Shown: piece after piece, positions 2,407 through 56,284 of the stretch
Layout of the letters: each line of letters starts with the position of its first letter
Numbering within the stretch: the stretch's first letter is position 1
NCBI GenBank assembly: GCA_031282835.1
Contig: JAITCU010000020.1
Location: forward strand, 15,805-79,804
Source: Puniceicoccales bacterium
GTDB lineage: Bacteria > Verrucomicrobiota > Verrucomicrobiia > Opitutales > JAIRLM01
Reading direction: 5' to 3'
Length of the DNA stretch: 64,000 nucleotides
The notes under the pieces: model-generated
The model's input: only the letters and a program-made list of their open reading frames with translations
Told to the model about the DNA's origin: nothing
Database searches by the model: none
Translations under genes and position numbers: made by a program

Positions 2407-2606
2407 CGGAGAGCATTTTGCCGCTCATGTTTCTCAAAAACAAGGAAAAACGACGCGAAGGCCTAGCTTGCCCCAGAGGCCAATATGCGATTTGCGAAAT
2501 TATGCGAGTTACGAAACCTAAACTCCTAGAGTCAGCATCAATATGCCGATCGCGATAGTCGTTTTTGATCATTCTCACAAGAGTTTTTCAGCATGACTGA
2601 CCTTAT

Positions 2607-5910: not shown

Positions 5911-6429
5911 TTAACCTTTTCTATCCCCGGGGAAAGCATTTTTTGCCGCGCTCGCCGGTTCGAGCACGTCGATGTAACTGATAGTTTGCGGGGCGATACC
6001 AATGAGGTAGCGGCGCCCCTCGCATTCGGCGATGGCCAGATGGTGCTTGGCTCCAAGCGCCAGTGTGTCGCTGATGGAGATTTTAGCCACCTTCTTCGCC
6101 CGGCCGTTGTGTTTGCGCAGGTAGATGATGCCTCCGGCCAAAGCTCCGAGGAGGATGACCATGGTGGTTACTTTAAGCAGTACTTTTCCTGCGGATATTT
6201 GGGGCAAAACCGGTCCCAGGGGAGTGTCGAGATCCTTCCCGGCGGATTGGGGATCATGTAGATCATCGATGATGATGGCATTTACACTTGCCACATGTGC
6301 CGATCGGGGAATGCCCGGTGGAGCGGCAGGGGAATTATTGGTCGGACGCCTGTTGGTAATCCGCATGGCGATTGTCACATACGCCATAAGAATGAATACG
6401 GCGGCGAGTATGAAGAAGAAACGTTTCAC
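5911..6429 (-). CDS. FliO-like export-apparatus accessory protein (orphan)
   Basis: 172 aa. TM ILLGALAGGIIYLRK is followed by KISISDTLALGAKHHLAIAECEGRRYLIGIAPQTISYIDVL. This aligns by eye with E. coli FliO LKISASASLGARERVVVVDVEDARLVLGVTAGQINLLHKL. It also has an extra N-terminal signal-like helix. Confidence 0.5.
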   Translation of the reverse strand: MKRFFFILAAVFILMAYVTIAMRITNRRPTNNSPAAPPGIPRSAHVASVNAIIIDDLHDPQSAGKDLDTPLGPVLPQISAGKVLLKVTTMVILLGALAGGIIYLRKHNGRAKKVAKISISDTLALGAKHHLAIAECEGRRYLIGIAPQTISYIDVLEPASAAKNAFPGDRKG

Positions 6430-6477
6430 GGGAAATCTCTAGTAAAAAATTCGATTTTCGGCAAGCATTTTCTGCAA

Positions 6478-7278
6478 ATGGCGATTTATTATATCTATCA
6501 CCCCGAAGGTTTTAACCCAGGTACGGCCTGCCGGCCGGGGTTGAAGGAGGTGCACCACTTGCTGCGAGTCTTGCGGGCAACGGCCCGGGATAGGTTTTTT
6601 GTTTTCGACGGGACTGGAACCGTCGGCCGGTGTTCCCTGCAATGTGCGGAGCCCAATCATTGCGCCCTCGCCGTGGAGGAGGTGGTAAATTTTCCGCCGC
6701 CCAGGCCTCTCGCCCTTTTGCAGGGCGTGGTTAAAAACGCCGCCATGGACCAGATTATCCACCAAGCGGCGGAGTTGGGTGTGACGCAAATTTTCCCCAT
6801 CGTCGGTGCAAATGGCGTTGTTTCCACGGATGGAGCCCACATGGCTAAGCGCCTGGAGCGCTGGCGCCAAATCGCCATTGAAGCCTGCAAGCAGTCCAAA
6901 AATCCGTTTCTACCGCAAATTCTCCCGCCGCGTCCCCTGGGCGCGGCGTTGGAGACGCTATCCCGGGAGATGTTCAAAATTGTAGCGGCGCTGGGGGAAA
7001 ACTGCCAACCGTGGGCAAAATGCGTTTCCCGGGTGTCATCTGCGGAATCCATTGCCGTGGCGATTGGCCCGGAGGGTGATTTTTCAGGGGACGAATACGC
7101 AACCCTGGTAGCCGCAGATTTCTTCCCACTGACCCTTGGCCAACGCGTTTTAACCACGCAAACGGCCGCCGTTGCCCTCCTTGGAACTATTCAACAAACG
7201 TATTGCCTGGAGAAAAGCCCAGCCCATCTGGTCGGGATGGCCGGATTCGAACCGGCGGCCTCTACGTCCCGAACGTAG
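6478..7278 (+). CDS. rsmE: 16S rRNA (uracil1498-N3)-methyltransferase
   Basis: Start moved to ATG 6478 (MAIYYIY). Motifs RLERWRQIAIEACKQS, IGPEGDFS and LGQRVLTTQTA. The 3' end overlaps tRNA-Pro on the opposite strand. Confidence 0.8.
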   Translation: MAIYYIYHPEGFNPGTACRPGLKEVHHLLRVLRATARDRFFVFDGTGTVGRCSLQCAEPNHCALAVEEVVNFPPPRPLALLQGVVKNAAMDQIIHQAAELGVTQIFPIVGANGVVSTDGAHMAKRLERWRQIAIEACKQSKNPFLPQILPPRPLGAALETLSREMFKIVAALGENCQPWAKCVSRVSSAESIAVAIGPEGDFSGDEYATLVAADFFPLTLGQRVLTTQTAAVALLGTIQQTYCLEKSPAHLVGMAGFEPAASTSRT

Positions 7279-7305
7279 CGCTCTACCAGACTAAGCTACA
7301 TCCCG
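7229..7305 (-). tRNA. tRNA-Pro (anticodon CGG)
   Basis: Cloverleaf read by eye: acceptor CGGGATG/CATCCCG, anticodon stem CTACG/CGTAG with loop TTCGGGA, T-arm GCCGG-TTCGAAT-CCGGC, and an encoded CCA. Confidence 0.9.
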
Positions 7306-7411
7306 TCCGAGCGAATTCATGAATGGAACTTCGCCGTCCCACGCAAGCGCAAAAGCGTTTGGTGATTTCGGACGGGGACCACGGGGAATAACTTTCATCG
7401 GTCGACGGAAA

Positions 7412-8863
7412 CTATCCCACGATCTGGATATCCAATTCTCGCGTATCGCCCCGTCGGCGAAGGTCCTCTTTTGCCTGTTCCAGCGCCCCGTTGGCCATTC
7501 CCGGCGTAACAAGTGCCTCTCCGAGAGATCTAATGGTAACGGTTTTTAGATTTTTTGCTTCAATGAATAGGTGTTTCAGATCTTCGGCGGTGATGTTTTG
7601 CATACAACTGTAAATGGTAACCTCCGATAAATTCGGAAACTGGGCCAATTGCCGGATGTTGCAACACCCATAAGTCACACTGCCGACTTCATACATCAAG
7701 TTACCACCCGGCCTCTTAATTTTATTGTCATTAACACTGGCCGCGGTAACAGCATTCCAATCTTTTGGCGATTGCCCAACGCCGAGCTTTGACAGCGAAG
7801 CCCCAACGTTCGGCTTGGCTTCAATTGCTGCTCGCCCCTCAGTTAACCCACATTTAGTGTAATATTCCAAAAGGGCAGCCCGGGAAGCTTCGGGAAAGCA
7901 CCGCTCCAGGGCATAGTCAGCAATCCCATGGAGTGTACAATCAGCGTCGTCTAAGTAATTTTCAAAGTATTCCTGGGCGAAAAGGAACTTTCGCATCGCA
8001 TTGCCGCTGTCGTAGGCGTAAAGGGCGTCAAGCACTGCCTTGGCCGAATTTCTCTCGAAGTCATTTCCACCAAGTGCGGCGATGAAAATATCGGCGTTGC
8101 TTAATTCATTGCCCAACAAGGTGTCTGTAGTGGATTCATTAAACCAATTAAAAAAAGCTCCTACTTGTTCGGCTGTCAATGGTGTTGCGGTATTAAATTT
8201 AATGGCATCACACATTTTTGCCAATCTTGTTACTCCATCTTTTGCCCTGTGCTCAAGTGGTTTCCCGCCAACACCCAACCCGGTACTTGTATCTGGGGTA
8301 ATGTCTTGCTGCGCGAGGACGGAAATTATTTCTCCATTGTCCACCTGAAGATGCGCATCCGCATGCCATGTCGCAACCTCTTGTAGCGCTTCGGGCTCCT
8401 TGCTTGTATTTGCGGCAACGTATGCATAGAGACTCAGCGGGGGATTGCCAGTTGTTTTTTGCTGCAGCAATTCCTGCTGTTGTGAGGGGCTTAATTTCCC
8501 AATGAGGTTACCAAGGGGAGCGCGCGTTTGGGGATTCAAACAGGCGGCCATTGCCACGGTTATCCCTCCGGCATCCGCGATTTTTAAGAGATCAAGGATT
8601 TCCCGCCCTTCTCTGGTGGTTAGCTTCCTATCCAAGTTATTGAGTAATGGTCCCAATTTGGATGCCAAATCATTACGTGACGCAAATGCCCGTTCGAAGG
8701 TTGCCGTTTTTCCCAAACTACCCACGTATGCAGCGAATTCTCCGCCTCGAATTTCTCCTTTGAAAAACTTGCAAAGTGCATCCCAAAAGCCTTTCACTCC
8801 GGTCTGGGCAAGTGTGGAGAAATCTACCCTAGCTGGGGCGGCGAGGTTAATTGACATCGACAT
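7412..8863 (-). CDS. hypothetical protein with a C-terminal Cys-containing LRR-like segment (candidate secreted effector)
   Basis: 483-aa ORF with no signal peptide. C-terminus CCNIRQLAQFPNLSEVTIYSCMQNITAEDLKHLFIEAKNLKTVTIRSL resembles eukaryotic F-box-type LRR_CC repeats. A possible promoter TTGCCA-17-TATTCT lies upstream. Confidence 0.65.
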   Translation of the reverse strand: MSMSINLAAPARVDFSTLAQTGVKGFWDALCKFFKGEIRGGEFAAYVGSLGKTATFERAFASRNDLASKLGPLLNNLDRKLTTREGREILDLLKIADAGGITVAMAACLNPQTRAPLGNLIGKLSPSQQQELLQQKTTGNPPLSLYAYVAANTSKEPEALQEVATWHADAHLQVDNGEIISVLAQQDITPDTSTGLGVGGKPLEHRAKDGVTRLAKMCDAIKFNTATPLTAEQVGAFFNWFNESTTDTLLGNELSNADIFIAALGGNDFERNSAKAVLDALYAYDSGNAMRKFLFAQEYFENYLDDADCTLHGIADYALERCFPEASRAALLEYYTKCGLTEGRAAIEAKPNVGASLSKLGVGQSPKDWNAVTAASVNDNKIKRPGGNLMYEVGSVTYGCCNIRQLAQFPNLSEVTIYSCMQNITAEDLKHLFIEAKNLKTVTIRSLGEALVTPGMANGALEQAKEDLRRRGDTRELDIQIVG

Positions 8864-8955
8864 AACACCAAAAGAATACCGATGTTTTTTGTGGATGGCA
8901 AGAAATTTTTATGCTTATGCGTATTTCTAGCGTTAATCGCGGTAAATCCACACCA

Positions 8956-9585
8956 TTACGGGACTTCGGGCGCACCCCAACTGGGGCGGTTGCGCAATTT
9001 TTCGGCTCGATAGATGTGCCGCATGGCTTCGAAGGTAGCTCGCTTATTGCCGGGCGGGATGGAGTAATCATAGGTATGGGCCACCCGCACTTCGCTCCGA
9101 ATGGACTCCAGGCGCAGCGCGAGCTCGCTCTTTGACATCGGTCCCCGGCGGCGGATGCGGCGGATAAGTTCACTATCCGATGGAGGTAGTAAAAAGATGT
9201 TTACCACGCGACCGTGAAGCGTGGTGTTTTCTTCTTCCCGGGCTAGTTCGCGTAGCTTTGCCGCCCCCTGCACATCCAAATTAAGGAGCACGTCCAAGCC
9301 GTTTTTGAAATGCTGGCTGATTTCCAAATGGGTTAGCCCGTAAAAATGCTCCCGATGCACGCGGGAATATTCTAAAAATTCTCCCTCACTCCGCATGCGC
9401 AAGAATTCGTCCTTCGTAGTAAAATAGTAGTCCACTCCGTTGATTTCATGGGAGCGGGGAAGGCGGGTGGTCGTGGTGATGGCCGTGATGATTTGCCCGG
9501 GGAATGTACTGACGATACTCCTGCAAAGGGTCGTTTTACCAACGCCCGTTGGCCCTGAAATTACAAAGATTAGAGGCAATGTCAT
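8956..9585 (-). CDS. gmk: guanylate kinase
   Basis: P-loop ISGPTGVGKTTL and the TTTRLPRSHEINGVDYYF motif. Confidence 0.9.
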   Translation of the reverse strand: MTLPLIFVISGPTGVGKTTLCRSIVSTFPGQIITAITTTTRLPRSHEINGVDYYFTTKDEFLRMRSEGEFLEYSRVHREHFYGLTHLEISQHFKNGLDVLLNLDVQGAAKLRELAREEENTTLHGRVVNIFLLPPSDSELIRRIRRRGPMSKSELALRLESIRSEVRVAHTYDYSIPPGNKRATFEAMRHIYRAEKLRNRPSWGAPEVP

Positions 9586-9637
9586 CGAAGCGGTGGAGGG
9601 TCCTTGGGAAATGGATTTAAGTCAAGATTTCACGTGC

Positions 9638-10948
9638 TTAGAAGATAAAGTCATCATGTAGCACCGTCCGCTCGGGGACGCAAATGATCCCATCGACGAG
9701 GACGCAACCGTGGGACTCATAGCCATTTGGCTTGCCATCCGCAACAAGTCGGACCCGGTCGCCGATGCGGGAGTCCTTATCGATGATGGCGTTGCGGATG
9801 TAGCAATTTTTCCCAACTCCACAGGGAATGGGGCCATTTGGTGTGTGACGTTTTTCAAAAGCATTGTTCCCCATTACTAAAACGTCCTCCAGACATGAAT
9901 TTTCGCGGATAACCGATCGAATCCCGATGACACAACGGCGTAAAACCGCGCGATCAATGAGGCATCCATCGCCGATGATGACGCGTTCCATGGCGCACCC
10001 GTTGATTTTAGACGCCGGTAGATAGCGTGGTTTCGTAAAAATGGGATGCTTTTCGTCAAAGAAGTCGAACGGCGGGATAATATCCGTGAGGGCTAAATTT
10101 GCGTCGAAGAAAGAACGTACTGAGCCGATGTCCTCCCAATAGCCGCTGAAGAGATAGGTGTACATTGCCGTTCCCTGGGCCAATAGCTTAGGTAAAACGT
10201 TTTTCCCAAAGTCATTTTCGCTGCCTTCCAACGCTCGTTTAAGTGTTTCAAAACGAAATAAATAATTCCCCATGGACGCGACACAGTAGGATTGGTTAAC
10301 ATCGAGGTTGTGGCGTATGTATTCTTCTCGAGGGAGCAGGAGTCGGCGGATTTGCTCATCGGTGCTTGGCTTTTCCTCGAAGTTGCGGATTCGCATATCG
10401 GGATACAGTTCCATGACGCCGAGTTGGCGCACAATGCTGCTGGGAACGATTTTTCCCGAAATGGTAACTTCCGCTCTCGATTCCAAGTGCGCCCTTACCA
10501 TGGCGGAAAAATCCATGCGATAAAGGTGGTCCCCGGCGAGTATGAGGACCAGGTCATCGTCCGAAAGATTGATGTAATCCATATTTTTCCGGACCGCATC
10601 CGCGGTCCCTTCATACCAAGTATGGTCTTTCCCGTCAACTTGTTCGGCGGGAAGAACTTCAACAAACCCTCCAGCGAATGGATCAAAGTTATAGGTTTCA
10701 GCGACGTGGCGGTGGAGGGAACGGGTGTGGTACTGGGTCAGCAGGTAAATTTGATTATAGCCCGAGTGAATGCTGTTACTAATGGCAATGTCGACGAGTC
10801 GGTACTTGCCGCCGATGGGAACCGCCGGTTTGCATCGACCCTTGGTGAGGGGGAAAAGGCGACTTCCAACGCCTCCGCCCATAATGATCGTTTGCACCCG
10901 AACTTGTCGCATTATTTTATAGTATAATTGACGCTCGTAAAAACTCAA
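9638..10948 (-). CDS. glgC: glucose-1-phosphate adenylyltransferase
   Basis: GGGVGSRLFPLTKGRCKPAVPIGGKYRLVDIAISN plus a C-terminal left-handed beta-helix-type region. The true start may be the internal Met at 10912. Confidence 0.9.
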   Translation of the reverse strand: MSFYERQLYYKIMRQVRVQTIIMGGGVGSRLFPLTKGRCKPAVPIGGKYRLVDIAISNSIHSGYNQIYLLTQYHTRSLHRHVAETYNFDPFAGGFVEVLPAEQVDGKDHTWYEGTADAVRKNMDYINLSDDDLVLILAGDHLYRMDFSAMVRAHLESRAEVTISGKIVPSSIVRQLGVMELYPDMRIRNFEEKPSTDEQIRRLLLPREEYIRHNLDVNQSYCVASMGNYLFRFETLKRALEGSENDFGKNVLPKLLAQGTAMYTYLFSGYWEDIGSVRSFFDANLALTDIIPPFDFFDEKHPIFTKPRYLPASKINGCAMERVIIGDGCLIDRAVLRRCVIGIRSVIRENSCLEDVLVMGNNAFEKRHTPNGPIPCGVGKNCYIRNAIIDKDSRIGDRVRLVADGKPNGYESHGCVLVDGIICVPERTVLHDDFIF

Positions 10949-12346: not shown

Positions 12347-12390
12347 GAATAGAGATCCTGCAGAAGTCGCTTTTTGGCCATTTTGCAGGG
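12347..12390 (-). repeat. partial, inverted-orientation copy of the ~97-bp palindromic element
   Basis: GAATAGAGATCCTGCAGAAGTCGCTTTTTGGCCATTTTGC matches the reverse complement of the right arm of the 45982-46078 element over about 38 nt. The remainder has diverged. Confidence 0.45.
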
Positions 12391-13484: not shown

Positions 13485-14909
13485 TTGCTAGGGATGGCGA
13501 AGGATGCGATGAGCGGGTGCGCCGTGAATAACTTTGAAGATGTGGGCGAAAATGAGGTTCCATTTGCTGCGCTTTGGGGTGAACTGCAAAGCGATTTTCG
13601 CCAGCTATTTTCCGAGGATGTGTACCGTGTATGGTTTGCTAGTTTGCGTCCGGCGAAGGTGTCCGGGGATTCGCTTACCCTGCTCGCTCCCAATGAATTT
13701 GCTGCCATTTGGATCCGCGATAATTACAAGTCGCTCATCGAGTCTCAAATTGCCAAGCACACGGGGCGCAACATTTCCGTCGCGTTGGAATTTGCCGACA
13801 ATCGGGCGGAGACCGCGGCCAACCCCGTTGGACAAAACCAGCGGGCGAATACGGCGTCACGCTGCGCCGATGCCATGCAGAAATTCGACGAAACCTATTC
13901 GGTAAATTCCAAAAATACCTTCGAAAGTTTTGTAATTGGGCCTGGGAACCAGCTGGCACAGGCAACCTGTGTCGCCGTGGCGAGAAATCCGGGAAAGGCC
14001 TACAATCCGCTCTTTCTCTACGGGGCGACGGGGCTCGGGAAGACGCATTTGCTGCAAGCTATTGCCCATGAGGCGCTTAAAAAGAAAGCGCGGTTGAAAG
14101 CGGTGTATATTTCGACGGAAAAATTTACCAACGAATTCATTAAGTCCATCCAGGAAAACCGCGTTTCCAAATTCCGCGAAATGTACCGCGGGGTGGACCT
14201 CCTGCTCATCGACGACATCCATTTCATCGCCGGCAAGGAGCGGATTCAGGAAGAATTTTTCCACACGTTTAACGCGCTTTTTGAGTCCCAGCGGCAAATT
14301 TGTCTCTGCAGTGACCGGCCGGCGTCGGAAATCACAGGGCTGGAGAGTCGCCTGGTGTCCCGTTTCCAATGGGGATTTATCGCGGATATCCAGGCGCCGG
14401 ATCTGGAAACGCGCATCGCCATTTTGCAGCGAAAGGCGACCGCCATGAATTTGGAACTGGCCGAGGACGTTATCCATCTCCTGGCCAAGGGGGTGGCGAG
14501 CAACGTGCGCCGGCTGGAGGGCGCGCTTAACCGCGTGGCCGGGTACATGGCGCTAAAAGGTCGCCCGATCAATGTCGCCGACGCGCAGGACCTGCTGAAG
14601 GACTTTTTTTCCGATGAGCAACGGACGGCGAGCATTGGGCAAATTCAACGGCGCGTGGCCGACCACTATCGAATTACCCTTGCGGACATGTTGGGTAAGA
14701 AGCGGCCCGCGCGCATCGCCTTCCCCCGTCAGGTGGCCATGTATTTGTCGCGGTTGCTCACGTCGCATTCGCTCCAGCGCATCGGCAGCGAATTTGGCGG
14801 CAAGGACCATGGAACCGTGATCCACGCGTGCAAGGCCGTTGAGCTTGCAATTGAGCAAAACCCGGACGTGCGGCGCGACGTCAAAATGATCCAGGATGGC
14901 CTGCGGTGA
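13485..14909 (+). CDS. dnaA: chromosomal replication initiator DnaA
   Basis: AAA+ motifs GATGLGKTHLLQAI and LLLIDDIHF, and a C-terminal DNA-binding region SLQRIGSEFGGKDHGTVIHA. The start codon is ambiguous (Met at 13485, 13494 or 13509). Confidence 0.9.
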   Translation: MLGMAKDAMSGCAVNNFEDVGENEVPFAALWGELQSDFRQLFSEDVYRVWFASLRPAKVSGDSLTLLAPNEFAAIWIRDNYKSLIESQIAKHTGRNISVALEFADNRAETAANPVGQNQRANTASRCADAMQKFDETYSVNSKNTFESFVIGPGNQLAQATCVAVARNPGKAYNPLFLYGATGLGKTHLLQAIAHEALKKKARLKAVYISTEKFTNEFIKSIQENRVSKFREMYRGVDLLLIDDIHFIAGKERIQEEFFHTFNALFESQRQICLCSDRPASEITGLESRLVSRFQWGFIADIQAPDLETRIAILQRKATAMNLELAEDVIHLLAKGVASNVRRLEGALNRVAGYMALKGRPINVADAQDLLKDFFSDEQRTASIGQIQRRVADHYRITLADMLGKKRPARIAFPRQVAMYLSRLLTSHSLQRIGSEFGGKDHGTVIHACKAVELAIEQNPDVRRDVKMIQDGLR

Positions 14910-16715: not shown

Positions 16716-16790
16716 GCCATGCGGGGACGACGATTAAAACGGGACCCTTCGAAAATATTTGCTAGATTTTTACGTTCCAACGAAAAAGCG

Positions 16791-16855
16791 TTGACAACCA
16801 GCCACTTTCAAGCAGCATAATTCCCTAGAATTCGAATTCTAAAAAAAGGATTAAT
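16791..16855 (+). promoter_or_regulatory. cassette C1 promoter/operator
   Basis: TTGACA(16791-16796), 19 nt, CATAAT(16816-16821), TCCCT, AGAATTCGAATTCT (16827-16840, a perfect palindrome), AAAAAAAGGATTAAT, then ATG at 16856. Four other loci have the same layout. Confidence 0.55.
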
Positions 16856-16981
16856 ATGAAAAAAGATACCACTATCCCCGTCTCCGCGACAAGTATTCCC
16901 GATGGCGATTTAAAGCTGGCATGTTCCGAGCCCAGGCCTGATGAAGTGATTGACTGTAACAGTGATAATGTAATCCCATGA
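16856..16981 (+). CDS. 41-codon upstream ORF translationally coupled to alaS
   Basis: MKKDTTIPVSATSIPDGDLKLACSEPRPDEVIDCNSDNVIP. An SD-like AAGGA lies 6 nt upstream. Its TGA (16979-16981) overlaps the alaS ATG (16978-16980). Below the ORF-track size cutoff. Confidence 0.45.
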   Translation: MKKDTTIPVSATSIPDGDLKLACSEPRPDEVIDCNSDNVIP

Positions 16982-19695
16982 AAACCGCTGAAGAATTACG
17001 CCGGGAGTTTCTCGATTACTTTTCCACACACGAACACCGGATTGTTCCCTCCGAGTCGCTTTTGCCCGGTTCACCCAATTTGCTTTTTACAAATGCCGGG
17101 ATGAATCAATTCGTGCCCTATTTTCTTAACGAGCGCCCAAGCCCATTTGCGCGGGCGGCGGACTCTCAGAAATGCATCCGCGCCGGCGGGAAACACAACG
17201 ACTTGGACGACGTGGGCTACGACACCTACCACCACACGTTTTTTGAAATGCTCGGCAACTGGTCCTTTGGCGATTATTTCAAACATGAGGCCATCTCCAT
17301 GGCGTGGGATCTGCTGGTAAATCGGTGGAAATTTCCCAAGGAACGACTCCACGTAACCGTCTACAAGCCGAAAACCGGTGAACCCTCCGAGGAGGACCGG
17401 GAGGCGTACGGCATTTGGGAAAAAATATTTATCCGGGAGGGCTTGGAGCCCGGGCGGCACATCCACTTTGGAAGCGCGAGGGACAACTTTTGGATGATGG
17501 GCGAAACCGGTCCTTGCGGGCCCTGCACGGAAATTCACATGGACCTCACCCCCGATGGCAACGGGGAAAATTTGGTAAATTCCGGATCGCCCCGGTGCAT
17601 GGAGCTGTGGAATTTGGTATTTATCCAGTACAACGCATTGGGCGAGGGCAATTTCGCGCCGCTACCGGCTCGCTACGTGGACACGGGCATGGGACTGGAG
17701 CGCATTGCCGGGGTTATTGCTTCAACTGCAGGATTCCGCGATTTTTCCAAAAATCCCTCCAACTATGGCAGTGACCTATTTGAACCGCTTTTCGCCGCCG
17801 TGGAAGCGGCGGCGGGGCGGAAAATCACCTACAATGGCACCGTCCCGGCGGACCGGAAAAAGCTTTCTTCCCAGGAAATGGCCGATTGCTCCTTCCGCGT
17901 TGTTGCGGACCATGTGCGGGCCTTGACCTTTGCCATTGGCGACGGCATTTTGCCCGGTAATGAGGGTCGGGGATATGTGCTCCGCCGCATCCTCCGCCGG
18001 GCCATTTTATTTGGCCAACGCCTGGGCCTGGGGGGCAACTTTCTGGCCGATTTGTCCGCGGTCTGCATCCGGCAAATGGCCCATGCCTATCCGACGCTCG
18101 AAACCAATGGGGAAACCATCGGAAAGGTTCTCGTGCGCGAACAGGAAGCGTTCACACGCACCTTGGAGCGCGGGCTACAGTTGCTCCAAGCAGCTATCCG
18201 CGAGCATGATACCACCGTTCCCGGGGATGTGGTTTTCGAGCTTTACGATACCTACGGTTTCCCCGTCGACCTTGCCGAATTGGTCGCCGGGGAGTCGTCC
18301 CGGACTTTGGACCGGGATGGGTTTGAGAAGTGCATGGCGGCCCAACGGCAACGGGCGCGCGAGGCCCAACGGGCGGAAACAATCACCGTCAAAGATTCAG
18401 ACAATGCGGCCGCACAAACGGTCTTTGTGGGACATGCAACGACGGGCCCGGTGGAAACGTGCCTCATAAAAACGGTTTCGCAGGGTGGAAAATTTCGGGC
18501 GGTTTTTGCCGAAACGCCCTTTTATGCCGAAAAGGGCGGACAAGTCGGTGATAGCGGACACGCGTCCATCGATGGTCGAACTTACGCAATCACGGACACG
18601 CAAATTTCCTCGGATGGGACCATATTGCATGAAATGTCCGACGCCATCGGGGCCATCCCCTGTGGGAGTAGGGTTTTTTTAACCGTCGATGGGGACCGCC
18701 GGCAGCGCATTTGTTGCCATCACACGGCGACGCACGTTTTGCAGGCGGCACTTCGCCAAGTACTCGGTAACCATGTGAAACAGATGGGTTCGTCGGTCGG
18801 TGAGGATTCCCTCCGCTTTGATTTCAGCCACTTTGAAAAACTTTCCCGTGAACAGCTGGAACAAACGGAGGACCTGGCAAATGCCATCGTTCTCAAAAAT
18901 TTTGCCGTGCGCACGGCGGAAGTTCCATTTGCCCAACGGCCGGACCACTGCCTGGCCCATTTCGGGGAACGCTACGGGGATCGGGTGCGCGTGGTCGAGT
19001 TTGTTGGCACGCAAATGGCGGAACTGTGCGGAGGGACCCATGTACGGGCAACCGGTGAAATCGGTGTGATTAAAATTTTGAGCGAGCAGGGCATTGCCGC
19101 CGGGACGCGCCGCATCGAAGCCGTTGCCGGAGTGAATGCGCAAAAGCTTTTCGGAAAAATTTTCCGCGACCAATGCGAATGCGCTCAACGGCTCCACTGC
19201 CCAATGGATGACCTCGCCGATGCGCTTTCAAAATTGCAGAGCCAAAAACAACAACTGGAAAAACAGGTCAAAGCGATGGCTAAGACGCAGGCGCAACGGC
19301 AATTAAAGGAATTTCTTGAAAAAAGCGTTGAGGTAAACGGACAACGCTGGGTAACGGGATGCTTTGACGTACCTCTGGACAACGGCGCATTGCGGTCCTT
19401 TGCCAAGGAGGCATCGGTGCAATTACCGCAGGCGCATGCGCTATTGCTCGCTCGGGAGGACTCGGGCATCTCCTACGTTCTTTCCACGTCCCCAGAAAGC
19501 GGGGTTTCCGCACAGAAGCTCATCGAAACTTGGAACGCAATCGTAGGGGGCAGTGGTGGGGGAAACGACACCGTCGCGTGCGGCAAATGCCCTGCCATCA
19601 AGGATATCCAAACGGTGCTTCAAAAACTTTATGATGTTTCCTCCACCCGGAAATGGAACCTTGGAATAAGTACCCCAATACGCGCATCATTATAA
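16978..19695 (+). CDS. alaS: alanine--tRNA ligase
   Basis: 905 aa. HHTFFEMLGNWSFGDYFK, the editing-domain HTATHVL...CGGTHV pair, and a C-terminal GGSGGG segment. Confidence 0.95.
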   Translation: MKTAEELRREFLDYFSTHEHRIVPSESLLPGSPNLLFTNAGMNQFVPYFLNERPSPFARAADSQKCIRAGGKHNDLDDVGYDTYHHTFFEMLGNWSFGDYFKHEAISMAWDLLVNRWKFPKERLHVTVYKPKTGEPSEEDREAYGIWEKIFIREGLEPGRHIHFGSARDNFWMMGETGPCGPCTEIHMDLTPDGNGENLVNSGSPRCMELWNLVFIQYNALGEGNFAPLPARYVDTGMGLERIAGVIASTAGFRDFSKNPSNYGSDLFEPLFAAVEAAAGRKITYNGTVPADRKKLSSQEMADCSFRVVADHVRALTFAIGDGILPGNEGRGYVLRRILRRAILFGQRLGLGGNFLADLSAVCIRQMAHAYPTLETNGETIGKVLVREQEAFTRTLERGLQLLQAAIREHDTTVPGDVVFELYDTYGFPVDLAELVAGESSRTLDRDGFEKCMAAQRQRAREAQRAETITVKDSDNAAAQTVFVGHATTGPVETCLIKTVSQGGKFRAVFAETPFYAEKGGQVGDSGHASIDGRTYAITDTQISSDGTILHEMSDAIGAIPCGSRVFLTVDGDRRQRICCHHTATHVLQAALRQVLGNHVKQMGSSVGEDSLRFDFSHFEKLSREQLEQTEDLANAIVLKNFAVRTAEVPFAQRPDHCLAHFGERYGDRVRVVEFVGTQMAELCGGTHVRATGEIGVIKILSEQGIAAGTRRIEAVAGVNAQKLFGKIFRDQCECAQRLHCPMDDLADALSKLQSQKQQLEKQVKAMAKTQAQRQLKEFLEKSVEVNGQRWVTGCFDVPLDNGALRSFAKEASVQLPQAHALLLAREDSGISYVLSTSPESGVSAQKLIETWNAIVGGSGGGNDTVACGKCPAIKDIQTVLQKLYDVSSTRKWNLGISTPIRASL

Positions 19696-20027
19696 TCGTA
19701 CAGATGTGGTATTCCAGTCTCCACCATGCCAGCCCAATCCTGCCTCATTGAAGTTAAACACGACTCCATCTCTTGTCGTTGTCGATCAATCGTCATTGGG
19801 TGGCACGCTCGCATGACGACCCATCCAATAATTATCCCCGTATCAGAATTGCTCATAGGGCATACCGAAAATCCCGAATCACATCTGAGCGTCCTTACAC
19901 GTTCCATGAGATCTGAATAGCAGTCGTCACTTGCGTCACACATCAAAATGTAGCGAATAATTCCATCACTGGCATATTTGCTAGCTAAACAATATTCATA
20001 TTGCGAACGTGGAAAACCAACACCCAT
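19629..20027 (-). CDS. hypothetical small Cys-rich protein
   Basis: 132-aa ORF in a visibly A/T-richer stretch. Weak resemblance to the neighbouring 119-aa ORF (QYEYCLASKYASDGIIRYIL vs EFEYNCISFCRPEDGTTIWLL). Its 3' end overlaps alaS convergently. Confidence 0.35.
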   Translation of the reverse strand: MGVGFPRSQYEYCLASKYASDGIIRYILMCDASDDCYSDLMERVRTLRCDSGFSVCPMSNSDTGIIIGWVVMRACHPMTIDRQRQEMESCLTSMRQDWAGMVETGIPHLYDYNDARIGVLIPRFHFRVEETS

Positions 20028-20086
20028 AGGCAGTCAATCAGACGAAGTCAGGCAAAAACGCAAGTAAATTTTTTTTAACAAAACGC

Positions 20087-20446
20087 TCATCCGTTAACTC
20101 GCTCTATTTCTACAAACCGCGCCTTGCACGCCAGTGGGAACCCTTCTACCGCCCCTATGAAAGCACTCAAAGATTTACAATGTAATTCGGATTGCATAGG
20201 ATGAAACTCCCTAGAAAGAAGCCATATAGTAGTTCCATCCTCTGGACGGCAAAACGATATACAGTTATATTCAAATTCTGTAGCAATACCATTTAGCGCC
20301 TCTGCTATCGACACGCACGCAGGAGTATCTGGCACGCATGTTGCACAGACAGCATAGCCCACACCGCGGGGACTTTCCGCGGAATTGAATTTTACCAAAT
20401 GCTCCATTGTCCGAGTGGAGCGAGATTTAAGCGTGCATGCAAGCAT
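20087..20446 (-). CDS. hypothetical small protein
   Basis: 119-aa ORF (possibly starting at MEHLVKF, 20407). Same strand as sctSTU and downstream of it. No motif recognised. Confidence 0.4.
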   Translation of the reverse strand: MLACTLKSRSTRTMEHLVKFNSAESPRGVGYAVCATCVPDTPACVSIAEALNGIATEFEYNCISFCRPEDGTTIWLLSREFHPMQSELHCKSLSAFIGAVEGFPLACKARFVEIERVNG

Positions 20447-20670
20447 TTTTTTTGAACCCGGACGCCCCCTATTTCTTTTCCGCTGACCTTGTGGGCCATA
20501 TCGACCGCGGTGTTATTTCTAAGGTCCATGTCCGTACGGTCTCTTTCAGAGTTATACCAGCGATGGATAACGAATCCGTGCGATTGCCGTGACAAATTTT
20601 CACTCCGCCTGCATATTTCGTCTTGACTTTCAATCGAAAATTCCCATAAAAAAACGCAGTTCTTTGACAT
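20392..20670 (-). CDS. hypothetical 92-aa protein downstream of repeat copy 1
   Basis: MSKNCVFLWEFSIESQDEICRRSEN... has a protein-like composition. The homologous position in repeat copy 2 lacks the ATG and has an in-frame stop. Confidence 0.35.
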   Translation of the reverse strand: MSKNCVFLWEFSIESQDEICRRSENLSRQSHGFVIHRWYNSERDRTDMDLRNNTAVDMAHKVSGKEIGGVRVQKKCLHARLNLAPLGQWSIW

Positions 20671-21160
20671 TTTTCTAAGATTTGTGAAGCATTACAGACA
20701 TCGACCTGCCGTTTGGTCCTTTCGCCGAGCATGGTACTCGCACCTGAAAATGGTGCGACCGGCCGTGGGCGAGAACAAACTAATGGTGGGAAAGTTGCTG
20801 CGGTGGTATAGCAAGTGGCAGAAAAAATTTTATTCGTATACCGTAAGATCTGCGTATTCATTGCGTTGTGATATGGGAGCAGGTGTAAGAGTCGATTTTA
20901 AAGCATTCCGACTTCTGCAAAAGCTCCCCTGTCTCGACGCTCAAACGAGCATTCCTATGCAAGCATGCGATTCTTTGATAGACTTCTAACGCTTGTGAAA
21001 TGGTGCAGATTTCGACTTGTCTCTCGGTCCTTTCGCCGAGCATGGTACTCGCGTCTGAAAATGATGCGACCGGCCATGGGCGAGAACAAACCATTGATGA
21101 GAGGATTTTGCAATGGAAAGCAAGTAGCAGAAAAAATTTTATTCATATGCCGTAATGTCT
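20640..21160. repeat. tandem duplication, period 311 bp, with a ~150-bp highly conserved core
   Basis: 20697-20855 and 21008-21160 align by eye with few substitutions (GGTCCTTTCGCCGAGCATGGTACTCGC...GCGACCGGCC.TGGGCGAGAACAAAC...GCAGAAAAAATTTTATTC). Each core contains a 7-bp stem-loop, at 20738-20758 and 21049-21069. Confidence 0.75.
20862..20981 (-). pseudogene. decayed duplicate of the 92-aa ORF
   Basis: At the position homologous to ATG 20670 the sequence reads CTA (20981-20979). The frame gives LSKNRMLA and then TAG at 20957-20955. Confidence 0.3.
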
Positions 21161-21316
21161 GAGCACCCGCTGCGTCATAACGTCCGGGCTTGTGTCTCTT
21201 TTGGCTCCGTGTCCAATTAAAAATTTACCGCATGATCGTCGCGAAAGAGCCAACGCCGTTGCCGCCGAAGCGCTACATAGGCTGGGGTTCGGGTATTTTC
21301 CGAAAAAGCAAGATGC

Positions 21317-22432
21317 CTATTCTTCCTCTTCCAAGTACATGCCGAGGTCTTCGCGGGCCATGTCGACTTCGATGTTGCTCTCGCCAGCCTCCTGCAAATC
21401 CGCCACCCAGCGCAAAACCTCGGCCACCGCCTCAAGGAGCTGGGACGGAACATACTCCATCGCGTCCGCCGAGTCCATTAGCGCATGGGCCAGGGGGACG
21501 TTGCGCATGATGGGAATGCCTTCCGCGCGGGCAATGGCTATCATTTCCGCGGCGAGGATACCCTCGCCCATAGCCAACACGACGGGCAGTAGGGTAAGTT
21601 CCTCCTCGTAGAGTATGGCGACGGCCAGATGTGTTGGATTGGTAATCAGCGCCGAGGAACGCTTTGTGCGCTGGGCTGGACCCTCGTTCATCATTTCCTG
21701 GTGGATTTGCTTGCGTTTGCTTTTGATTTCCGGGGAGCCCTCCATTTCCTTATATTCGCGCTTAATTTCACTCTTGGACATCATCATCTTTTTGTTGAAG
21801 TCACGACGTTGGAAGAAGATATCCGCGACGGCGACCACCATATAGGCAAAGATGACCAGAGACGCGAATTTCTTCATCACCGGGCCAATAAACGCTATCA
21901 GACCCGACACCCCCGAGTAGGGCAGCAGGATCATCTCATCCAGCTGCGATTTGATAAGCCGGTAGATTAGGATACCCAGGAAGGTCACCTTTAAAACAGA
22001 TTTGAGAAATTCGAAGATATTTTTCTTCGAAAAGATCTGTTTAAATTTCTCTATGGGGTTGAGCTTTTTAATGTCAGGTTTAATGGGTTCGGTCGTGAAA
22101 ATGGCTCCCACCTGCATGAATCCAGCGGCAATGGCAAAAGCGGCCACAATCCCCAGTATGGGAAGGAGCAGGTCGACCAGTTCCGCAAAGCAGGCGGATA
22201 TAACCGCGCTCAGCCCCTGGCGGAACGGAGCACCGAAAAAGGGCACGGGGAGAACCAAAAATTCCTGAAGCTCGTCCACCGCCGTCCACCATTTCAGGCC
22301 GATGTAGGCAAATACGCCGATGAGCAAGACCGTGGACGTGAAATCCTTACTGTAGGCGACTTGTCCCTTTTTCTTTGCATCACGCAACCGCTTGGGTGTC
22401 GGCTGTTCTGTTTTTTCCTCGCCCTCTCCCAT
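21317..22432 (-). CDS. sctU: type III secretion export-apparatus switch protein SctU (YscU/FlhB family)
   Basis: 371 aa with four N-terminal TMs, the NPTH autocleavage motif (ALITNPTHLAVAI) and PIMRNVPLAHAL. Confidence 0.9.
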   Translation of the reverse strand: MGEGEEKTEQPTPKRLRDAKKKGQVAYSKDFTSTVLLIGVFAYIGLKWWTAVDELQEFLVLPVPFFGAPFRQGLSAVISACFAELVDLLLPILGIVAAFAIAAGFMQVGAIFTTEPIKPDIKKLNPIEKFKQIFSKKNIFEFLKSVLKVTFLGILIYRLIKSQLDEMILLPYSGVSGLIAFIGPVMKKFASLVIFAYMVVAVADIFFQRRDFNKKMMMSKSEIKREYKEMEGSPEIKSKRKQIHQEMMNEGPAQRTKRSSALITNPTHLAVAILYEEELTLLPVVLAMGEGILAAEMIAIARAEGIPIMRNVPLAHALMDSADAMEYVPSQLLEAVAEVLRWVADLQEAGESNIEVDMAREDLGMYLEEEE

Positions 22433-22438
22433 GGCAAC

Positions 22439-23227
22439 CTATCTCCAAAAAATCCTCACGAACTGGAGGGCACGGCTTTCTCCGAAGAAATGGGATTTAA
22501 AAAATCCCATGAGAAATGACAAATAGAGAATGATAAATAACGACGAGAGACCACTTTTAATGCCCATGGACAGGAAAAACACGTTAAGCTGGGGCGCAAA
22601 ACGATTGACCATACCCAAGCCGAATTCGGCAAGGAATAGGGCAAACAGAATCGGACCCACGAGAGCGAAAACGACATTGGCGTAATCGCTCGTCAATTGT
22701 ACGAAAAACGCCGCAACACCGCCGTCGAACATGGGAAATAGCGAAAACAGCGGCCACAGCCGATAGCTTTCGTAGAGGAGCTGCAGCAGAAAAAGAAATC
22801 CGCCGGTGATGAAAAAGAGCAGGAGGACGATTTGGACGAAAAAATCTGCCATCACCGTCGTTTGGCTCTCATTAAAGGCGCTGAACAGGGAAGCGGATGA
22901 GGCACCCCGCTGTACATCGATGAGATTCCCCACACCCTCCACGACGAAAAAAATAAAACTGGCCAAAAAACCGAGGACAAGCCCGATGAGCAGTTCCTTG
23001 GTGCAAAGCATGATGATCAGTCCCAGGCTGATGTCAGGGTTAATAAATTCCTTGTGGAGAACTGGATAAATAAAAAGCGTCAAGCCCAAAATCCATGCGT
23101 TGCGCCCCATGCCCATCACATTTTTTTTTCCGAAAAACGGAATGACCGAAAACATCGCTGCCGTGCGCACGATGCCCATGATCATCACAAAAAAGAAGCT
23201 GCGGAATATGAAGAGGAACGAAGGCAT
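22439..23227 (-). CDS. sctT: type III secretion export-apparatus protein SctT (YscT/FliR family)
   Basis: 262-aa polytopic membrane protein located between sctS and sctU, with FliR-like hydrophobic periodicity. Confidence 0.8.
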   Translation of the reverse strand: MPSFLFIFRSFFFVMIMGIVRTAAMFSVIPFFGKKNVMGMGRNAWILGLTLFIYPVLHKEFINPDISLGLIIMLCTKELLIGLVLGFLASFIFFVVEGVGNLIDVQRGASSASLFSAFNESQTTVMADFFVQIVLLLFFITGGFLFLLQLLYESYRLWPLFSLFPMFDGGVAAFFVQLTSDYANVVFALVGPILFALFLAEFGLGMVNRFAPQLNVFFLSMGIKSGLSSLFIILYLSFLMGFFKSHFFGESRALQFVRIFWR

Positions 23228-23248
23228 GGCGTATTCCCAGGGCTAGGG

Positions 23249-23518
23249 CTAGTGAAGTAAGGTCGGAAAATAGGCGAACAGGTAGCGGGTGAATTGCATC
23301 ACCTCCGATCCGATCCACCGGGCGGTGATCAGCAACACCACGACAACGGAAATGAGTTTCATCGTAAATCCCAGGGTTTGTTCCTGAATTTGTGTAAGTG
23401 CCTGCAGGAGGCTCACGATAAGTCCCACGCCCGTGGCCACCAAAATGGATGGCAACGACAAAATGAGCACCAAAATCATGGCGCGTATGCTAAAGTCTAG
23501 GACGATGCTGTTTTCCAT
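23249..23518 (-). CDS. sctS: type III secretion export-apparatus protein SctS (YscS/FliQ family)
   Basis: 89 aa: MENSIVLDFSIRAMILVLILSLPSILVATGVGLIVSLLQALTQIQEQTLGFTMKLISVVVVLL (the FliQ signature QA.TQIQEQTL). This is the C-terminal part of a spurious 594-aa ORF-track entry. Confidence 0.85.
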   Translation of the reverse strand: MENSIVLDFSIRAMILVLILSLPSILVATGVGLIVSLLQALTQIQEQTLGFTMKLISVVVVLLITARWIGSEVMQFTRYLFAYFPTLLH

Positions 23519-24965: not shown

Positions 24966-25115
24966 CTACCGAAATATGAATTTTTTAAAGATGTAAAATT
25001 TGTCATTAACATATGGTTGGGTCCAGTGAACATTAATACTGATTTGAATAATACCAGAGATACTAGCTGGGAGCTTTCCTGCGCGTGACATCATAATTGG
25101 AAGGTTCAATGCCAT
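24966..25115 (-). pseudogene. 49-codon relic of a giant-gene-like 5' end (cassette C2)
   Basis: Starts with ATGGCATTG at the same place relative to the conserved leader as the giant ORF (ATGGCGCCA). GGTATTATTCAAATCA...CCAACC resembles GGCATCTTCAAATCA...CCAACC at codons 36-50 of the giant gene. It stops after 49 codons, next to the serS 3' end. Confidence 0.35.
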
Positions 25116-25218
25116 TGTTGTTTCTGGCAACTTTACCGGAGTAACAATATGGCCTTTGTTCTTTGTTAATTGATTTCCATGCATTCTTTGATCGGCTGAG
25201 CCAGCTTGTTTTTTTTAT
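25116..25218 (-). promoter_or_regulatory. conserved leader, cassette C2
   Basis: Blocks AAAACAAGCTGGCT and AATGCATGGAAATCAATTAACAAA are shared with the leaders at 32885-33007 and 56173-56284. Confidence 0.4.
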
Positions 25219-25413
25219 TTATGGTGATATTTCCCAAGTGGTTTTTGTGGCTGGCAGCGGGCTAGCCCGTTCTAAAAACGCAGGAAATTCTCGTGCAGAC
25301 GAGGGTTCCAGTTTGAAGCCAGGTGTCAGTCCTGGGGTTAGGGACGTTTGCAGTCCCCAATCGTCATAAAAAATATCTGCCTCGAACGCGGCGGTAACGG
25401 TGGTGCTTTTCAT
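25219..25413 (-). CDS. cassette small protein, 64 aa (C2)
   Basis: MKSTTVTAAFEADIFYDDWGLQTSLTPGLTPGFKLEPSSAREFPAFLERASPLPATKTTWEISP. SD AAAGGAGAA upstream. It aligns full-length with the 61-aa C3 ORF, with an in-frame 9-nt indel, the same stop and several third-position-only differences. Confidence 0.5.
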   Translation of the reverse strand: MKSTTVTAAFEADIFYDDWGLQTSLTPGLTPGFKLEPSSAREFPAFLERASPLPATKTTWEISP

Positions 25414-25477
25414 ATTGAATTTTCTCCTTTGAACTCGAATTCGCAGGTTATATTGTTGGCAAGCGGGTGTTTGTCAA
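25414..25477 (-). promoter_or_regulatory. cassette C2 promoter/operator
   Basis: TTGACA(25477-25472), 19 nt, TATAAC, CTGC, GAATTCGAGTTC (25442-25431), AAAGGAGAAAATTCAAT, then ATG at 25413. Confidence 0.55.
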
Positions 25478-25533
25478 GCCAACTTGTAAAAAAAATGCGA
25501 AGGCCCACGAAAAATCCCTATTCACGCGGTGCC

Positions 25534-26650: not shown

Positions 26651-26747
26651 TAACAGAGGTCCTGCAAAAGTCGGAAACACTGTCTTAAGACCCGCATTTC
26701 ATGAGGGGCAAAATGGCCCAAAAGCGACTTCAGCAGGATCTCTAATG

Positions 26748-32805: not shown

Positions 32806-32884
32806 TCAAGCCTGCGAAAGATTTATATACAAATCCAATGAACATTAAAATATTCACGAAAAATTTTCTTAGATACAATGCCAT

Positions 32885-33007
32885 AATTTAAAAGTCCAGT
32901 ACTGTTGTTGTCTTCGGCTCACTTGCCGAAATAATAACCCGTCATTTGTTTTTTTGTTAATTAGTTCCCATTGCTTCTCCAATCAGATAAGCTAGCTCAT
33001 TTTCTAT
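32885..33007 (-). promoter_or_regulatory. conserved leader, cassette C3
   Basis: GAGCTAGCTTATCTGAT, AATGGGAACTAATTAACAAAAAAA, and GTTATTATTTCGGCAAGTGAGCCGAAGAC with the stem-loop TTCGGC/GCCGAA (32913-32930). It ends in ATGGCATTG at 32884. Confidence 0.4.
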
Positions 33008-33193
33008 TTAGGGAGATATTCTCCAGGTGGCTTTCGCAGTTGGCAGCGGGCTGGCCCGTCCTAAAAACGCAGGAAATTCCCAAGAAAATGGGGGTTCCAG
33101 TTTGAAGCCAGGTGTCAGTTCTGAGACTGGTAACGTTTGCAATTTGCAATCATCATTAAAAATATCTGTCGTAGCTGTGGCGGTACTTTTCAT
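33008..33193 (-). CDS. cassette small protein, 61 aa (C3)
   Basis: MKSTATATTDIFNDDCKLQTLPVSELTPGFKLEPPFSWEFPAFLGRASPLPTAKATWRISP. SD AAAGGAGAA upstream. Paralog of the C2 ORF. Confidence 0.5.
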   Translation of the reverse strand: MKSTATATTDIFNDDCKLQTLPVSELTPGFKLEPPFSWEFPAFLGRASPLPTAKATWRISP

Positions 33194-33257
33194 ATTGAAT
33201 CTTCTCCTTTGAACTCGAATTCACAGACCATATTGCTGGAGAATAGGCGTTTGTCAA
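33194..33257 (-). promoter_or_regulatory. cassette C3 promoter/operator
   Basis: TTGACA(33257-33252), 19 nt, TATGGT, CTGT, GAATTCGAGTTC (33222-33211), AAAGGAGAAGATTCAAT, then ATG at 33193. Confidence 0.55.
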
Positions 33258-33829
33258 TCAACTTTTGAAAATTGTGAATATTTTTTGGGAAATCCCGCTT
33301 TATCCGGGGCCCGAGTCTGTCGGGATGGTTAAGAAATGCGCGCAGCACTTCAGGGGCCCACGTTCAACGGCGTTTGATATTTACTGGCTAGGGCGCGTTG
33401 ATTTTGAAAAAGGCAAAAAATTTTCTCTTTGCGTATTTAATACTCCTAGAAGTTGCTTCCCCAGATTTTCATCGCCACGGGGAGATGGATGCGCGTGTGT
33501 GCCCGACTGCGTGATGATTGAATGCCCCTTATACCCCCCAATGGAAGAAGTCTATGGCAAGAAATTTCTCACGGAAGTAGATTTTGGGTTGTTTCGTCTA
33601 GCATGGAGTTCGGATTTTGCAACGGCGGTTTCAACTTCCGCAAAAGCAGTGGGGTCCTTGGGAAGTACGTTAGCCTTTTAAGGCTACGGAAACTTTGACC
33701 GAGAAATTTCCGCGATCTCGACCTCCCAATCGGATTTCTTGGCCAACCGTGCCGCAGGTTGAGCCGTTTGCGTTTCGCATTTTACGGGCCCCCGGCCGCA
33801 TATACGGGGAGAAGCCTTTTCACGGGGGC

Positions 33830-45759: not shown

Positions 45760-45872
45760 AGTGGCAGACTCTCAAACGATTCTCGGGCCTTGCCAAGGAA
45801 AGATATGCCGGCACCATCGAAACGGGGTTCCCCGGGAATATTTACAAAATCTTCGCATTTCCTCCGAAAGCG

Positions 45873-45937
45873 TTGACAAGCGCCCATTCTCAAGCAAGAT
45901 AGTCCAAGAATCTGGATTCTAAAAAAGAAAGTTCAAT
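45873..45937 (+). promoter_or_regulatory. cassette C4 promoter/operator
   Basis: TTGACA(45873-45878), 19 nt, GATAGT, CCA, AGAATCTGGATTCT (45907-45920), AAAAAAGAAAGTTCAAT, then ATG at 45938. Confidence 0.5.
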
Positions 45938-46111
45938 ATGAAAAATGTCATCATTATCGCCCCGCCCATGGCAGATATTTTTAATAGAGGTCCTGCGAAA
46001 GTCAGAAACACTGCCTTGAAACCCGCATTTCATGCGGGGCAAAATGGCTCAAAAGCGACTTCTGCAGGACCTCTATTATCCTCTTACCAACGTAGCCGGC
46101 TAAAACATTAA
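45938..46111 (+). pseudogene. cassette small ORF interrupted by the palindromic element (C4)
   Basis: MKNVIIIAPPMADIFN shares the ADIF(Y/N) motif with C2/C3. From codon 16-17 the frame runs into the 97-bp element and reads through it to a stop at 46109-46111. Confidence 0.4.
45982..46078 (+). repeat. ~97-bp palindromic element, copy B
   Basis: TAATAGAGGTCCTGCGAAAGTC...GACTTCTGCAGGACCTCTATTA, with the internal hairpin CCCGCATTTCATGCGGGG. Confidence 0.75.
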
Positions 46112-56172: not shown

Positions 56173-56284
56173 TAGGAGGCTAAATGCTATTGTCGTCTTC
56201 GGCCGATTTGCCGAAGTAATAACTCGCCTTTTTTGTTAATTGATTTTCATTGGTTTTCCGATCGTCCAAGCTAGCTTGTTTTTT
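56173..56284 (-). promoter_or_regulatory. conserved structured leader, cassette C5
   Basis: AAAAAACAAGCTAGCTTGGACGATCGG, AATGAAAATCAATTAACAAAAAAGG, and GTTATTACTTCGGCAAATCGGCCGAAGAC with the stem-loop CTTCGGC/GCCGAAG (56197-56216). CCTCCT lies immediately before ATG 56172. Confidence 0.45.

Follow-up and report, generated by a model that had tools for sequence, protein, structure and literature searches.

The window analysed here is a stretch of 64,000 nucleotides (nt) from a metagenome-assembled genome of the Puniceicoccales (Verrucomicrobiota), part of a 107-kb contig, and Logan contig L001 (run SRR14710905) is identical to it. The subject of this report is a pair of direct repeats, each containing a long hairpin that is a candidate structured RNA, located between alaS (16978-19695, + strand) and sctU (21317-22432, minus strand). 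The two genes are convergent, and sctU encodes the type III secretion export-apparatus switch protein (TIGR01404, 407 bits against a cutoff of 358, and PF01312). Relatives of this genome carry isolate names (Gsp477, Pcl387, Cc175 and Nm470) that, by their look, we take to be termite-gut sample codes.

The genes are separated by a lineage-specific spacer (19696-21316). It is missing from relatives represented by contigs L002 (sctU 6001-7125, alaS 7122-9788; SctU 96% and AlaS 79% identical to the window) and L099 (alaS 775-3441, sctU 3438-3971; AlaS 84% identical), and because in both of these alaS and sctU run into each other at their 3' ends, with a 4-nt overlap, the 1.6 kb in the window represent inserted DNA. 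The window AlaS is 905 residues long as compared with 887-897 residues in relatives, and its alignment to the L002 protein ends at residue 884; the inserted DNA has thus replaced or extended the last ~20 codons of alaS (19630-19695).

The conserved part of the spacer (20560-21195, + strand), which holds both repeat units, matches positions 8369-9030 of L094, a contig from a related genome. Unit 1 (20620-20880, + strand) is composed of a left flank, the hairpin, a 39-nt block and a conserved tail specific to this unit, and unit 2 occupies 20931-21189 on the same strand; they are identical to their L094 orthologues at 211/260 and 196/258 positions respectively. When compared to each other, 20620-20852 and 20931-21161 align over 233 nt at 76.4% identity (E=3e-43), two short gaps included, and the units start 311 nt apart, an offset that becomes 309 nt after a 2-nt indel. 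The 311-bp tandem duplication reported in a first-pass annotation of this DNA is therefore genuine, although the near-identical core described there as ~150 bp is actually ~66 nt long (20715-20780), with four differences between the window copies. The 39-nt block (20810-20848) is 87% identical between units, the remaining unit sequence is 55-65% identical, and the homology continues past the palindrome for ~75 nt on the left and ~65 nt on the right. Tandem Repeats Finder does not report the repeat, and there is no third copy of the unit within the window.

The L094 locus was found by a search with AlaS, whose closest relative (P0002, 85% identical) is encoded on this contig (JGI sample 3300042612). 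Its alaS-sctU spacer is 1.87 kb long, and blastn aligns window 20561-21176 with L094 8369-9012 at 74% identity over 648 nt, including both units in the same order and orientation. Likewise, a covariance model built from the two window cores has two + strand matches in L094, of 77 bits (8513-8597) and 67 bits (8850-8937). Since both units are present at this locus, the duplication is older than the split between the window and L094 species. The parts of the spacer to the left and right of the repeat region are unrelated between the two genomes, so that the region of the two units is the only part of the insert kept in both.

Conservation of this region was gauged against the 4-fold degenerate sites of alaS, sctU and sctT, which are 0.68-0.71 identical between the window and L094. 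In a MAFFT alignment the repeat region is identical at 478/627 sites, or 0.76 (P=4e-5 relative to this neutral level), and unit 1 reaches 0.81. One highly conserved segment is that following hairpin 1 (20810-20880; AGCAAGTGGCAGAAAAAATTTTATTCG...GTGATATGGGAG), in which 66/71 sites are identical to L094 where ~0.69 is the neutral expectation, and whose first 39 nt are common to unit 2 (21119-21157). It is unstructured, with no significant folding on either strand (z about 0), and could be an RNA tail, a seed region, a promoter or a protein-binding site.

The structure of the hairpins was derived from a MAFFT alignment (A6) of the four copies, two from the window and two from L094, that was made without reference to a structure. 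From it RNAalifold predicts a single extended hairpin, whose six helices comprise 38 pairs; the covariation term is -4.12 kcal/mol, and five pairs are maintained via changes on both sides. In the window this rod-like architecture spans 20693-20802 in copy 1 and 21004-21112 in copy 2, both on the + strand, with covariance-model matches of 126.8 and 136.6 bits respectively. Copy 1 has a three-helix core (20720-20774) with an apical loop UGAAAAU (20745-20751) and a single-sequence fold of -31.2 kcal/mol (z=-3.85), and the corresponding core of copy 2 (21031-21085) folds at -29.7 kcal/mol (z=-3.25). The remaining + strand core folds have z-scores of -2.41 and -2.34, and those on the minus strand are -2.49 and -1.82. 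The inner hairpins of the first-pass annotation, TCGCACC-TGAAAAT-GGTGCGA (20738-20758) and TCGCGTC-TGAAAAT-GATGCGA (21049-21069), and their outer TCGCC/GGCGA pairing are all found, although the stem-loop is larger than was described, forming a 38-bp rod over ~110 nt.

Pairing within this rod is closely maintained. Standard pairs occupy 147/152 pair cells (96.7%; four copies by 38 pairs), and pairing falls to only 40-54% if the 3' partners are slid by 1-3 columns. Among shuffled alignments, 7/500 reach the observed number of compensated pairs and 2/500 the covariation score. If the 48 substitution events are re-placed randomly among columns with the same consensus base, 16.7±2.5 cells are broken as compared to the five observed, and none of 50,000 such trials is as low as five (P<2e-5). 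The two copies in the window differ by a C:G to T:A change and an A:T to G:T wobble, just as had been recorded, but the compensatory evidence that had been drawn from them is not significant with these copies alone (five random transitions keep all 23 core pairs in ~20% of trials) and becomes so only after the two orthologous copies are added.

The pairing is also strand-specific. The same pairs read on the minus strand give 31 broken cells rather than five, because 28 cells are G.U on the + strand, and G.U is present at 18 pair positions (those 28 cells) compared to A.C at two (binomial P=4e-4). Pairs in the hairpin are thus kept up by compensatory and wobble changes above chance and on one strand, as is generally expected of a structured RNA, across four sequences. 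The preservation of pairs and the strand asymmetry together indicate a constraint on a single-stranded molecule of the + strand, and RNA would be the simplest reading of this. The first-pass annotation argued that only an RNA of the + strand would tolerate the wobble; the strand assignment holds, but the exclusivity does not, as single-stranded DNA of the + strand fits equally well.

The core and its surroundings have different histories. In the left flank, the 39-nt block and the tail, 19 informative sites support a grouping of the copies by orthology and 1 contradicts it; in the 66-nt core a grouping by genome is supported by 3 sites and contradicted by none, and the window cores are 94% identical to each other but 80-83% identical to their own orthologues. 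With paralogues closer than orthologues in the core, the apical hairpin sequence has become homogenised separately in each genome, and either gene conversion over short tracts or parallel adaptation of the copies to one shared partner could account for this. Preservation of the pairing is accordingly a stronger argument for function than is identity of the core.

Coding potential was assessed for seven open reading frames (ORFs) of 65-132 residues in the spacer, including those of 92, 130 and 78 residues on the minus strand and 101 and 65 residues on the + strand. None has a Pfam or NCBIfam match above cutoff, and as one concatenated query against 5.8 billion proteins they have no homologues. 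With a 3-periodic Markov model trained on this window, all of the spacer ORFs score between -2.4 and -9.0 bits per 100 nt, as compared with 5.8±3.6 for real-gene segments, and there are no gene calls between sctU and alaS in the identical contig L001. The differences between units 1 and 2 have a third-position excess in no frame, and each of the four in the core is non-synonymous whichever of the six frames is read. Differences between orthologues lack codon periodicity (chi-square P=0.10-0.98 across blocks), with non-synonymous changes prevailing in nearly every frame and block; the exception is the 39-nt block, which has only seven differences. Across the region no frame is open in both the window and L094, and the indels are not multiples of three. 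A conserved frame, a synonymous excess and homologues, the marks of a protein-coding gene, are all lacking in the repeat units. The 92-residue ORF (20392-20670, minus strand) was correctly described as intact after copy 1, with a decayed counterpart after copy 2 that reads L-S-K-N-R-M-L-A-stop, having CTA for ATG and a stop at codon 9. We judge that it is not a gene: it has no homologue, it scores -3.2 bits per 100 nt, its ATG start is CTG in L094, and similarity to L094 stops at ~20560, inside the ORF. The suggestion that the duplicated unit is a promoter plus a gene is rejected.

We estimate a probability of roughly 0.55 that the units are two paralogous + strand genes for a rod-like structured RNA of ~110 nt that acts as RNA; its transcription, ends and target are features that we infer. 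An ancestor of the window and L094 genomes would have gained extra DNA between alaS and sctU that already carried, or soon acquired, the duplication, and the surrounding spacer would later have turned over with the two units being retained. Selection would act on single-stranded pairing of the + strand, such that stem substitutions are compensated or pass through G.U intermediates. The RNA would be read in the alaS direction, toward the 3' end of the convergent sctU, and may function as a small RNA in regulation or protein binding, in which case the tail at 20810-20880 could serve as its interaction region. It most likely acts in its own right because there is no + strand gene downstream, which also makes the cis-regulatory option of the first-pass annotation, in the form of a 5' leader, unlikely; its small RNA option on the + strand is strengthened by the four-copy compensation and by the excess of G.U over A.C. 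The hairpin is thus a well-supported candidate for a narrowly distributed structured RNA of no known family, predicted in two genomes. A more elaborate version of this reading is distinctly unlikely, namely that the two hairpin RNAs form a class of regulatory RNA restricted to this lineage and linked to the export-gate operon for type III secretion in termite-gut Puniceicoccales. In that case they would be read toward the 3' end of sctU and might run antisense into it, would co-evolve as a pair with a shared protein or RNA partner, and would tune the expression of the secretion system or of effectors in a verrucomicrobium associated with a host.

A number of considerations weigh against interpreting the hairpins as RNA genes. 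The evidence comes from just two genomes with two copies each, and the structure was tested on the very sequences from which it had been derived. The core identity of 0.94 within the window is partly a product of concerted evolution and overstates purifying selection on the sequence, and between orthologues the core (0.80-0.83) is little better conserved than the left flank (0.76-0.80). Because G.T is also tolerated in single-stranded DNA, the data do not separate RNA from + strand single-stranded DNA. Consensus scans found no convincing sigma-70 promoter upstream of the hairpin common to the four copies; there is a TTGACA at 20665-20670, ~30 nt ahead of the hairpin, without an acceptable -10 box, and a TAAAAT on the minus strand (20826-20821) has a poor -35 box. 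Consensus scanning and reading of the sequence similarly revealed no intrinsic terminator after either hairpin, a T-run within 20 nt of the hairpin base being absent on both strands. Finally, no members of the family other than the four known copies were found.

This last point reflects several searches. The covariance model R2, built from alignment A6, recovers the four known copies and nothing else from ~750 kb of related loci, and no further copies were found in the window, in ~3 kb more of the same contig to its left or in the related loci. Exact scans of genome contigs and of metagenome contigs with a 21-mer of the core found nothing, although the 21-mer is too specific and misses the L094 copies, so that diverged members would have escaped these scans. 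A degenerate pattern that fits all four copies is GGTYCTTTCGYYGRGCATGG. Pattern scans of viral sequences gave nothing but one chance match, in L102, that is rejected by the covariance model. The Rfam comparison proposed in the first-pass annotation was run, and the repeats do not match a known family: Rfam 15 identifies only three tRNAs in the whole window at gathering thresholds, and on 19600-21400 at E<=10 all matches are at chance level, the best being mir-3151 (23 bits with a threshold of 83) and PsrR1 (21.7 bits with a threshold of 42). A literature search on Puniceicoccales, termites and type III secretion found nothing relevant.

Foremost among the alternatives, and in our view unlikely, is a palindromic repeat of mobile origin, either similar to miniature inverted-repeat transposable elements (MITEs), ERIC or Correia elements, or a site at which an integrated element, now decayed, recombined or replicated as a single strand, that is at most passively transcribed in the alaS 3' region. 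It accords with the spacer being inserted DNA that is missing from close relatives, with the sctU 3' flank being a hotspot that has different accessory genes in contigs L003 and L004, and with the suitability of the G.T wobble for + strand single-stranded DNA. In addition, the L094 insert is bounded by a direct copy, 103 nt long, of the region around the sctU 3' end and its terminator (8105-8207 and 9487-9599, 78% identical), which resembles an attachment-site duplication left by an integrated element, although no counterpart is present in the window. Like ERIC, Correia and MITE elements, the hairpin is an imperfect intergenic palindrome, here of ~110 nt; ERIC elements are reported to be constrained at the RNA level in one orientation, and the window itself contains a true MITE-like family of 3-4 dispersed copies. 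However, the repeats described here are present as two adjacent copies only, with no dispersed copies in the window or in ~750 kb of related loci; the unit (~250-310 nt) far exceeds the palindrome, with ~75 nt of homology to its left and ~65 nt to its right; and a search of the sequence revealed neither terminal inverted repeats nor target-site duplications bounding the units. Remnants of transposase, integrase or relaxase genes are lacking in Pfam, NCBIfam and protein searches, and blastn against phage and plasmid collections, like the viral scans, found no match. Moreover, a decaying palindrome should gain A.C as often as G.T, and without compensation after immobilisation, which is not the pattern seen.

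A second alternative, which we consider improbable, is that these are sense/antisense control modules such as those of plasmid copy control or type I toxin-antitoxin systems, with the + strand hairpin being antisense to the leader of a minus-strand transcript from the A/T-rich block, where the TAAAAT at 20826-20821 resembles a -10 box. The conserved block would lie upstream on the minus strand, and tandem duplication is common for such loci. The long stem with bulges and internal loops, and the 7-nt apical loop that begins C-U-G-A and is YUNR-like (a short and weak motif), resemble CopA, Sok and RNAI, which are likewise associated with acquired DNA and duplicated loci. Unlike in those systems, the opposite strand carries neither a replication gene nor a conserved ORF that could be the target, and no plasmid or phage homology was found. 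Downstream on the minus strand no ORF is conserved, the 92-residue frame losing its start in L094 and its similarity at 20560; no ORF for a small hydrophobic peptide is common to the four copies, and the putative -35 box is poor.

The units could also be an old duplication without function, conserved in the core only through recent gene conversion, but this is very improbable. It would account for the grouping of the core by genome while the flanks group by orthology, and for the paralogues in the window being more alike in the core than the orthologues are (0.94 compared with 0.80-0.83). Gene conversion leaves unexplained the preservation of pairing on one strand, as well as the retention of the units alone out of the spacer in both species and the identity above the level of 4-fold sites, including the 66/71 in the unit-1 tail. 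A duplicated promoter-plus-gene unit or a small protein gene (among the ORFs listed above) has almost no likelihood: in its favour, both window copies have several open frames running through the core, but none of the seven has a homologue, family match or positive coding score, every core difference is non-synonymous in every frame, the frames are broken by stops or frameshifts in L094, and no gene is called at the locus.

The RNA interpretation can be set beside known systems. Tandem paralogous small RNA genes include OmrA/OmrB in E. coli, PrrF1/PrrF2 in Pseudomonas and AbcR1/AbcR2 in Rhizobiales. Compared with pairs of the OmrA/OmrB type, the units described here are similar in being adjacent, intergenic, non-coding and on the same strand, and in having a shared conserved segment with concerted evolution. 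As predicted RNA genes they differ in having no sequence or structural likeness to a family in Rfam and no recognisable promoter or Rho-independent terminator, and in that conservation lies in a long paired rod instead of a single-stranded seed. The extended irregular hairpin of ~110 nt is reminiscent of 6S RNA and the small signal recognition particle (SRP) RNA, but there is no Rfam match at E<=10, no central bubble and no domain IV motif with a GNRA loop; the element is also not essential, because it is absent from L002 and L099. Integron attC sites similarly form strand-specific hairpins with bulged bases, repeated every few hundred bases, but a regular-expression search of 20560-21210 on both strands found zero RYYYAAC or GTTRRRY sites, there is no integrase, and the sequence between the copies is homologous rather than composed of unrelated cassettes.

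Other candidates were considered and rejected or judged unlikely. A 5' cis-regulatory leader (riboswitch, T-box or attenuator) on the + strand is unlikely, with the convergent sctU 3' end being the next + strand feature and serS, at 23570, being the next + strand gene. There is no reverse transcriptase and the differences are not adenine-specific, as would be expected for a diversity-generating retroelement or retron; there are no repeated GGA loops as in a CsrA-sponge RNA; and motifs of hrp-box, PIP-box, sigma-54 and sigma-28 promoters were not seen on reading the sequence. A chromosomal replication origin was also rejected, with L002 and L099 having no spacer and with no skew switch here, though dnaA (13485-14909) is 6 kb upstream of the repeats. 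Given the position of dnaA the origin is probably nearby, and GC skew over the window is weak, without a clear switch.

The genes adjoining the spacer form a short, isolated type III secretion cluster. Upstream of sctU on the minus strand are sctS and sctT, with serS beyond (starting at 23570, + strand); these are the only secretion genes between serS and alaS (21317-23500, minus strand), and sctR and other secretion genes are not adjacent. Type III secretion genes appear to be scattered, as in Chlamydiae. In another relative an SctD-like gene is found near alaS (L095), and L097 has a CesT chaperone gene. A terminator-like hairpin and T-run at 21228-21244 on the minus strand, 73 nt past the sctU stop codon and identified by consensus scan only, probably ends the sctSTU transcript ahead of the repeats. 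A search of metagenomes with the SctU C-terminus identified only relatives of <=57% identity, mainly in human-gut assemblies.

The alaS-sctU junction is a variable spot, because L003 and L004 have unrelated genes directly after sctU. In L003, whose SctU is 95% identical to that of the window, this gene (7130-7837, minus strand) codes for a eukaryote-like ubiquitin carboxyl-terminal hydrolase domain (PF00443, E=4.6e-16); it occupies the place that the repeats have in the window, and it is a fragment, as the contig stops within the gene. It is plausible that this deubiquitinase-like gene encodes a type III effector.

Three families of dispersed repeats are present elsewhere in the window. The first is the MITE-like repeat of ~94 nt, with intergenic copies at 26651-26744, 45982-46078 and 59618-59711 (+ strand) and a fragment at 12348-12386 (minus strand). 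The copies are 84-89% identical, have long terminal inverted repeats (AUAGAGGUCCUGCAGAAGUC...GACUUCUGCAGGACCUCUAU) and form a near-perfect hairpin (z as low as -8.4 in one copy), such that the family looks like a MITE; it is dispersed and bounded by inverted repeats, whereas in the sequence searched the alaS-sctU repeat units are neither. A second intergenic family of ~400 nt (25092-25492, 32882-33271 and 56171-56291; 72-74% identity between copies) has one copy adjoining the start of a single 3165-residue ORF (46675-56172, minus strand). The third family is weak (~80-95 nt; 16785-16879, 45867-45972 and 56295-56371; 74-77% identity between copies), with one copy inverted and one just upstream of alaS.

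To our knowledge, descriptions of regulatory RNAs in Verrucomicrobiota are few, and there are none for the uncultured termite-gut Puniceicoccales with chlamydia-like scattered type III secretion genes. With the element known from two genomes its present importance is modest, but it provides a covariation-supported and strand-assigned candidate whose coordinates and covariance model can be checked directly against metatranscriptomes. The alaS-sctU junction emerges as a small hotspot for accessory DNA, and may help in finding secretion-related cargo in these genomes.

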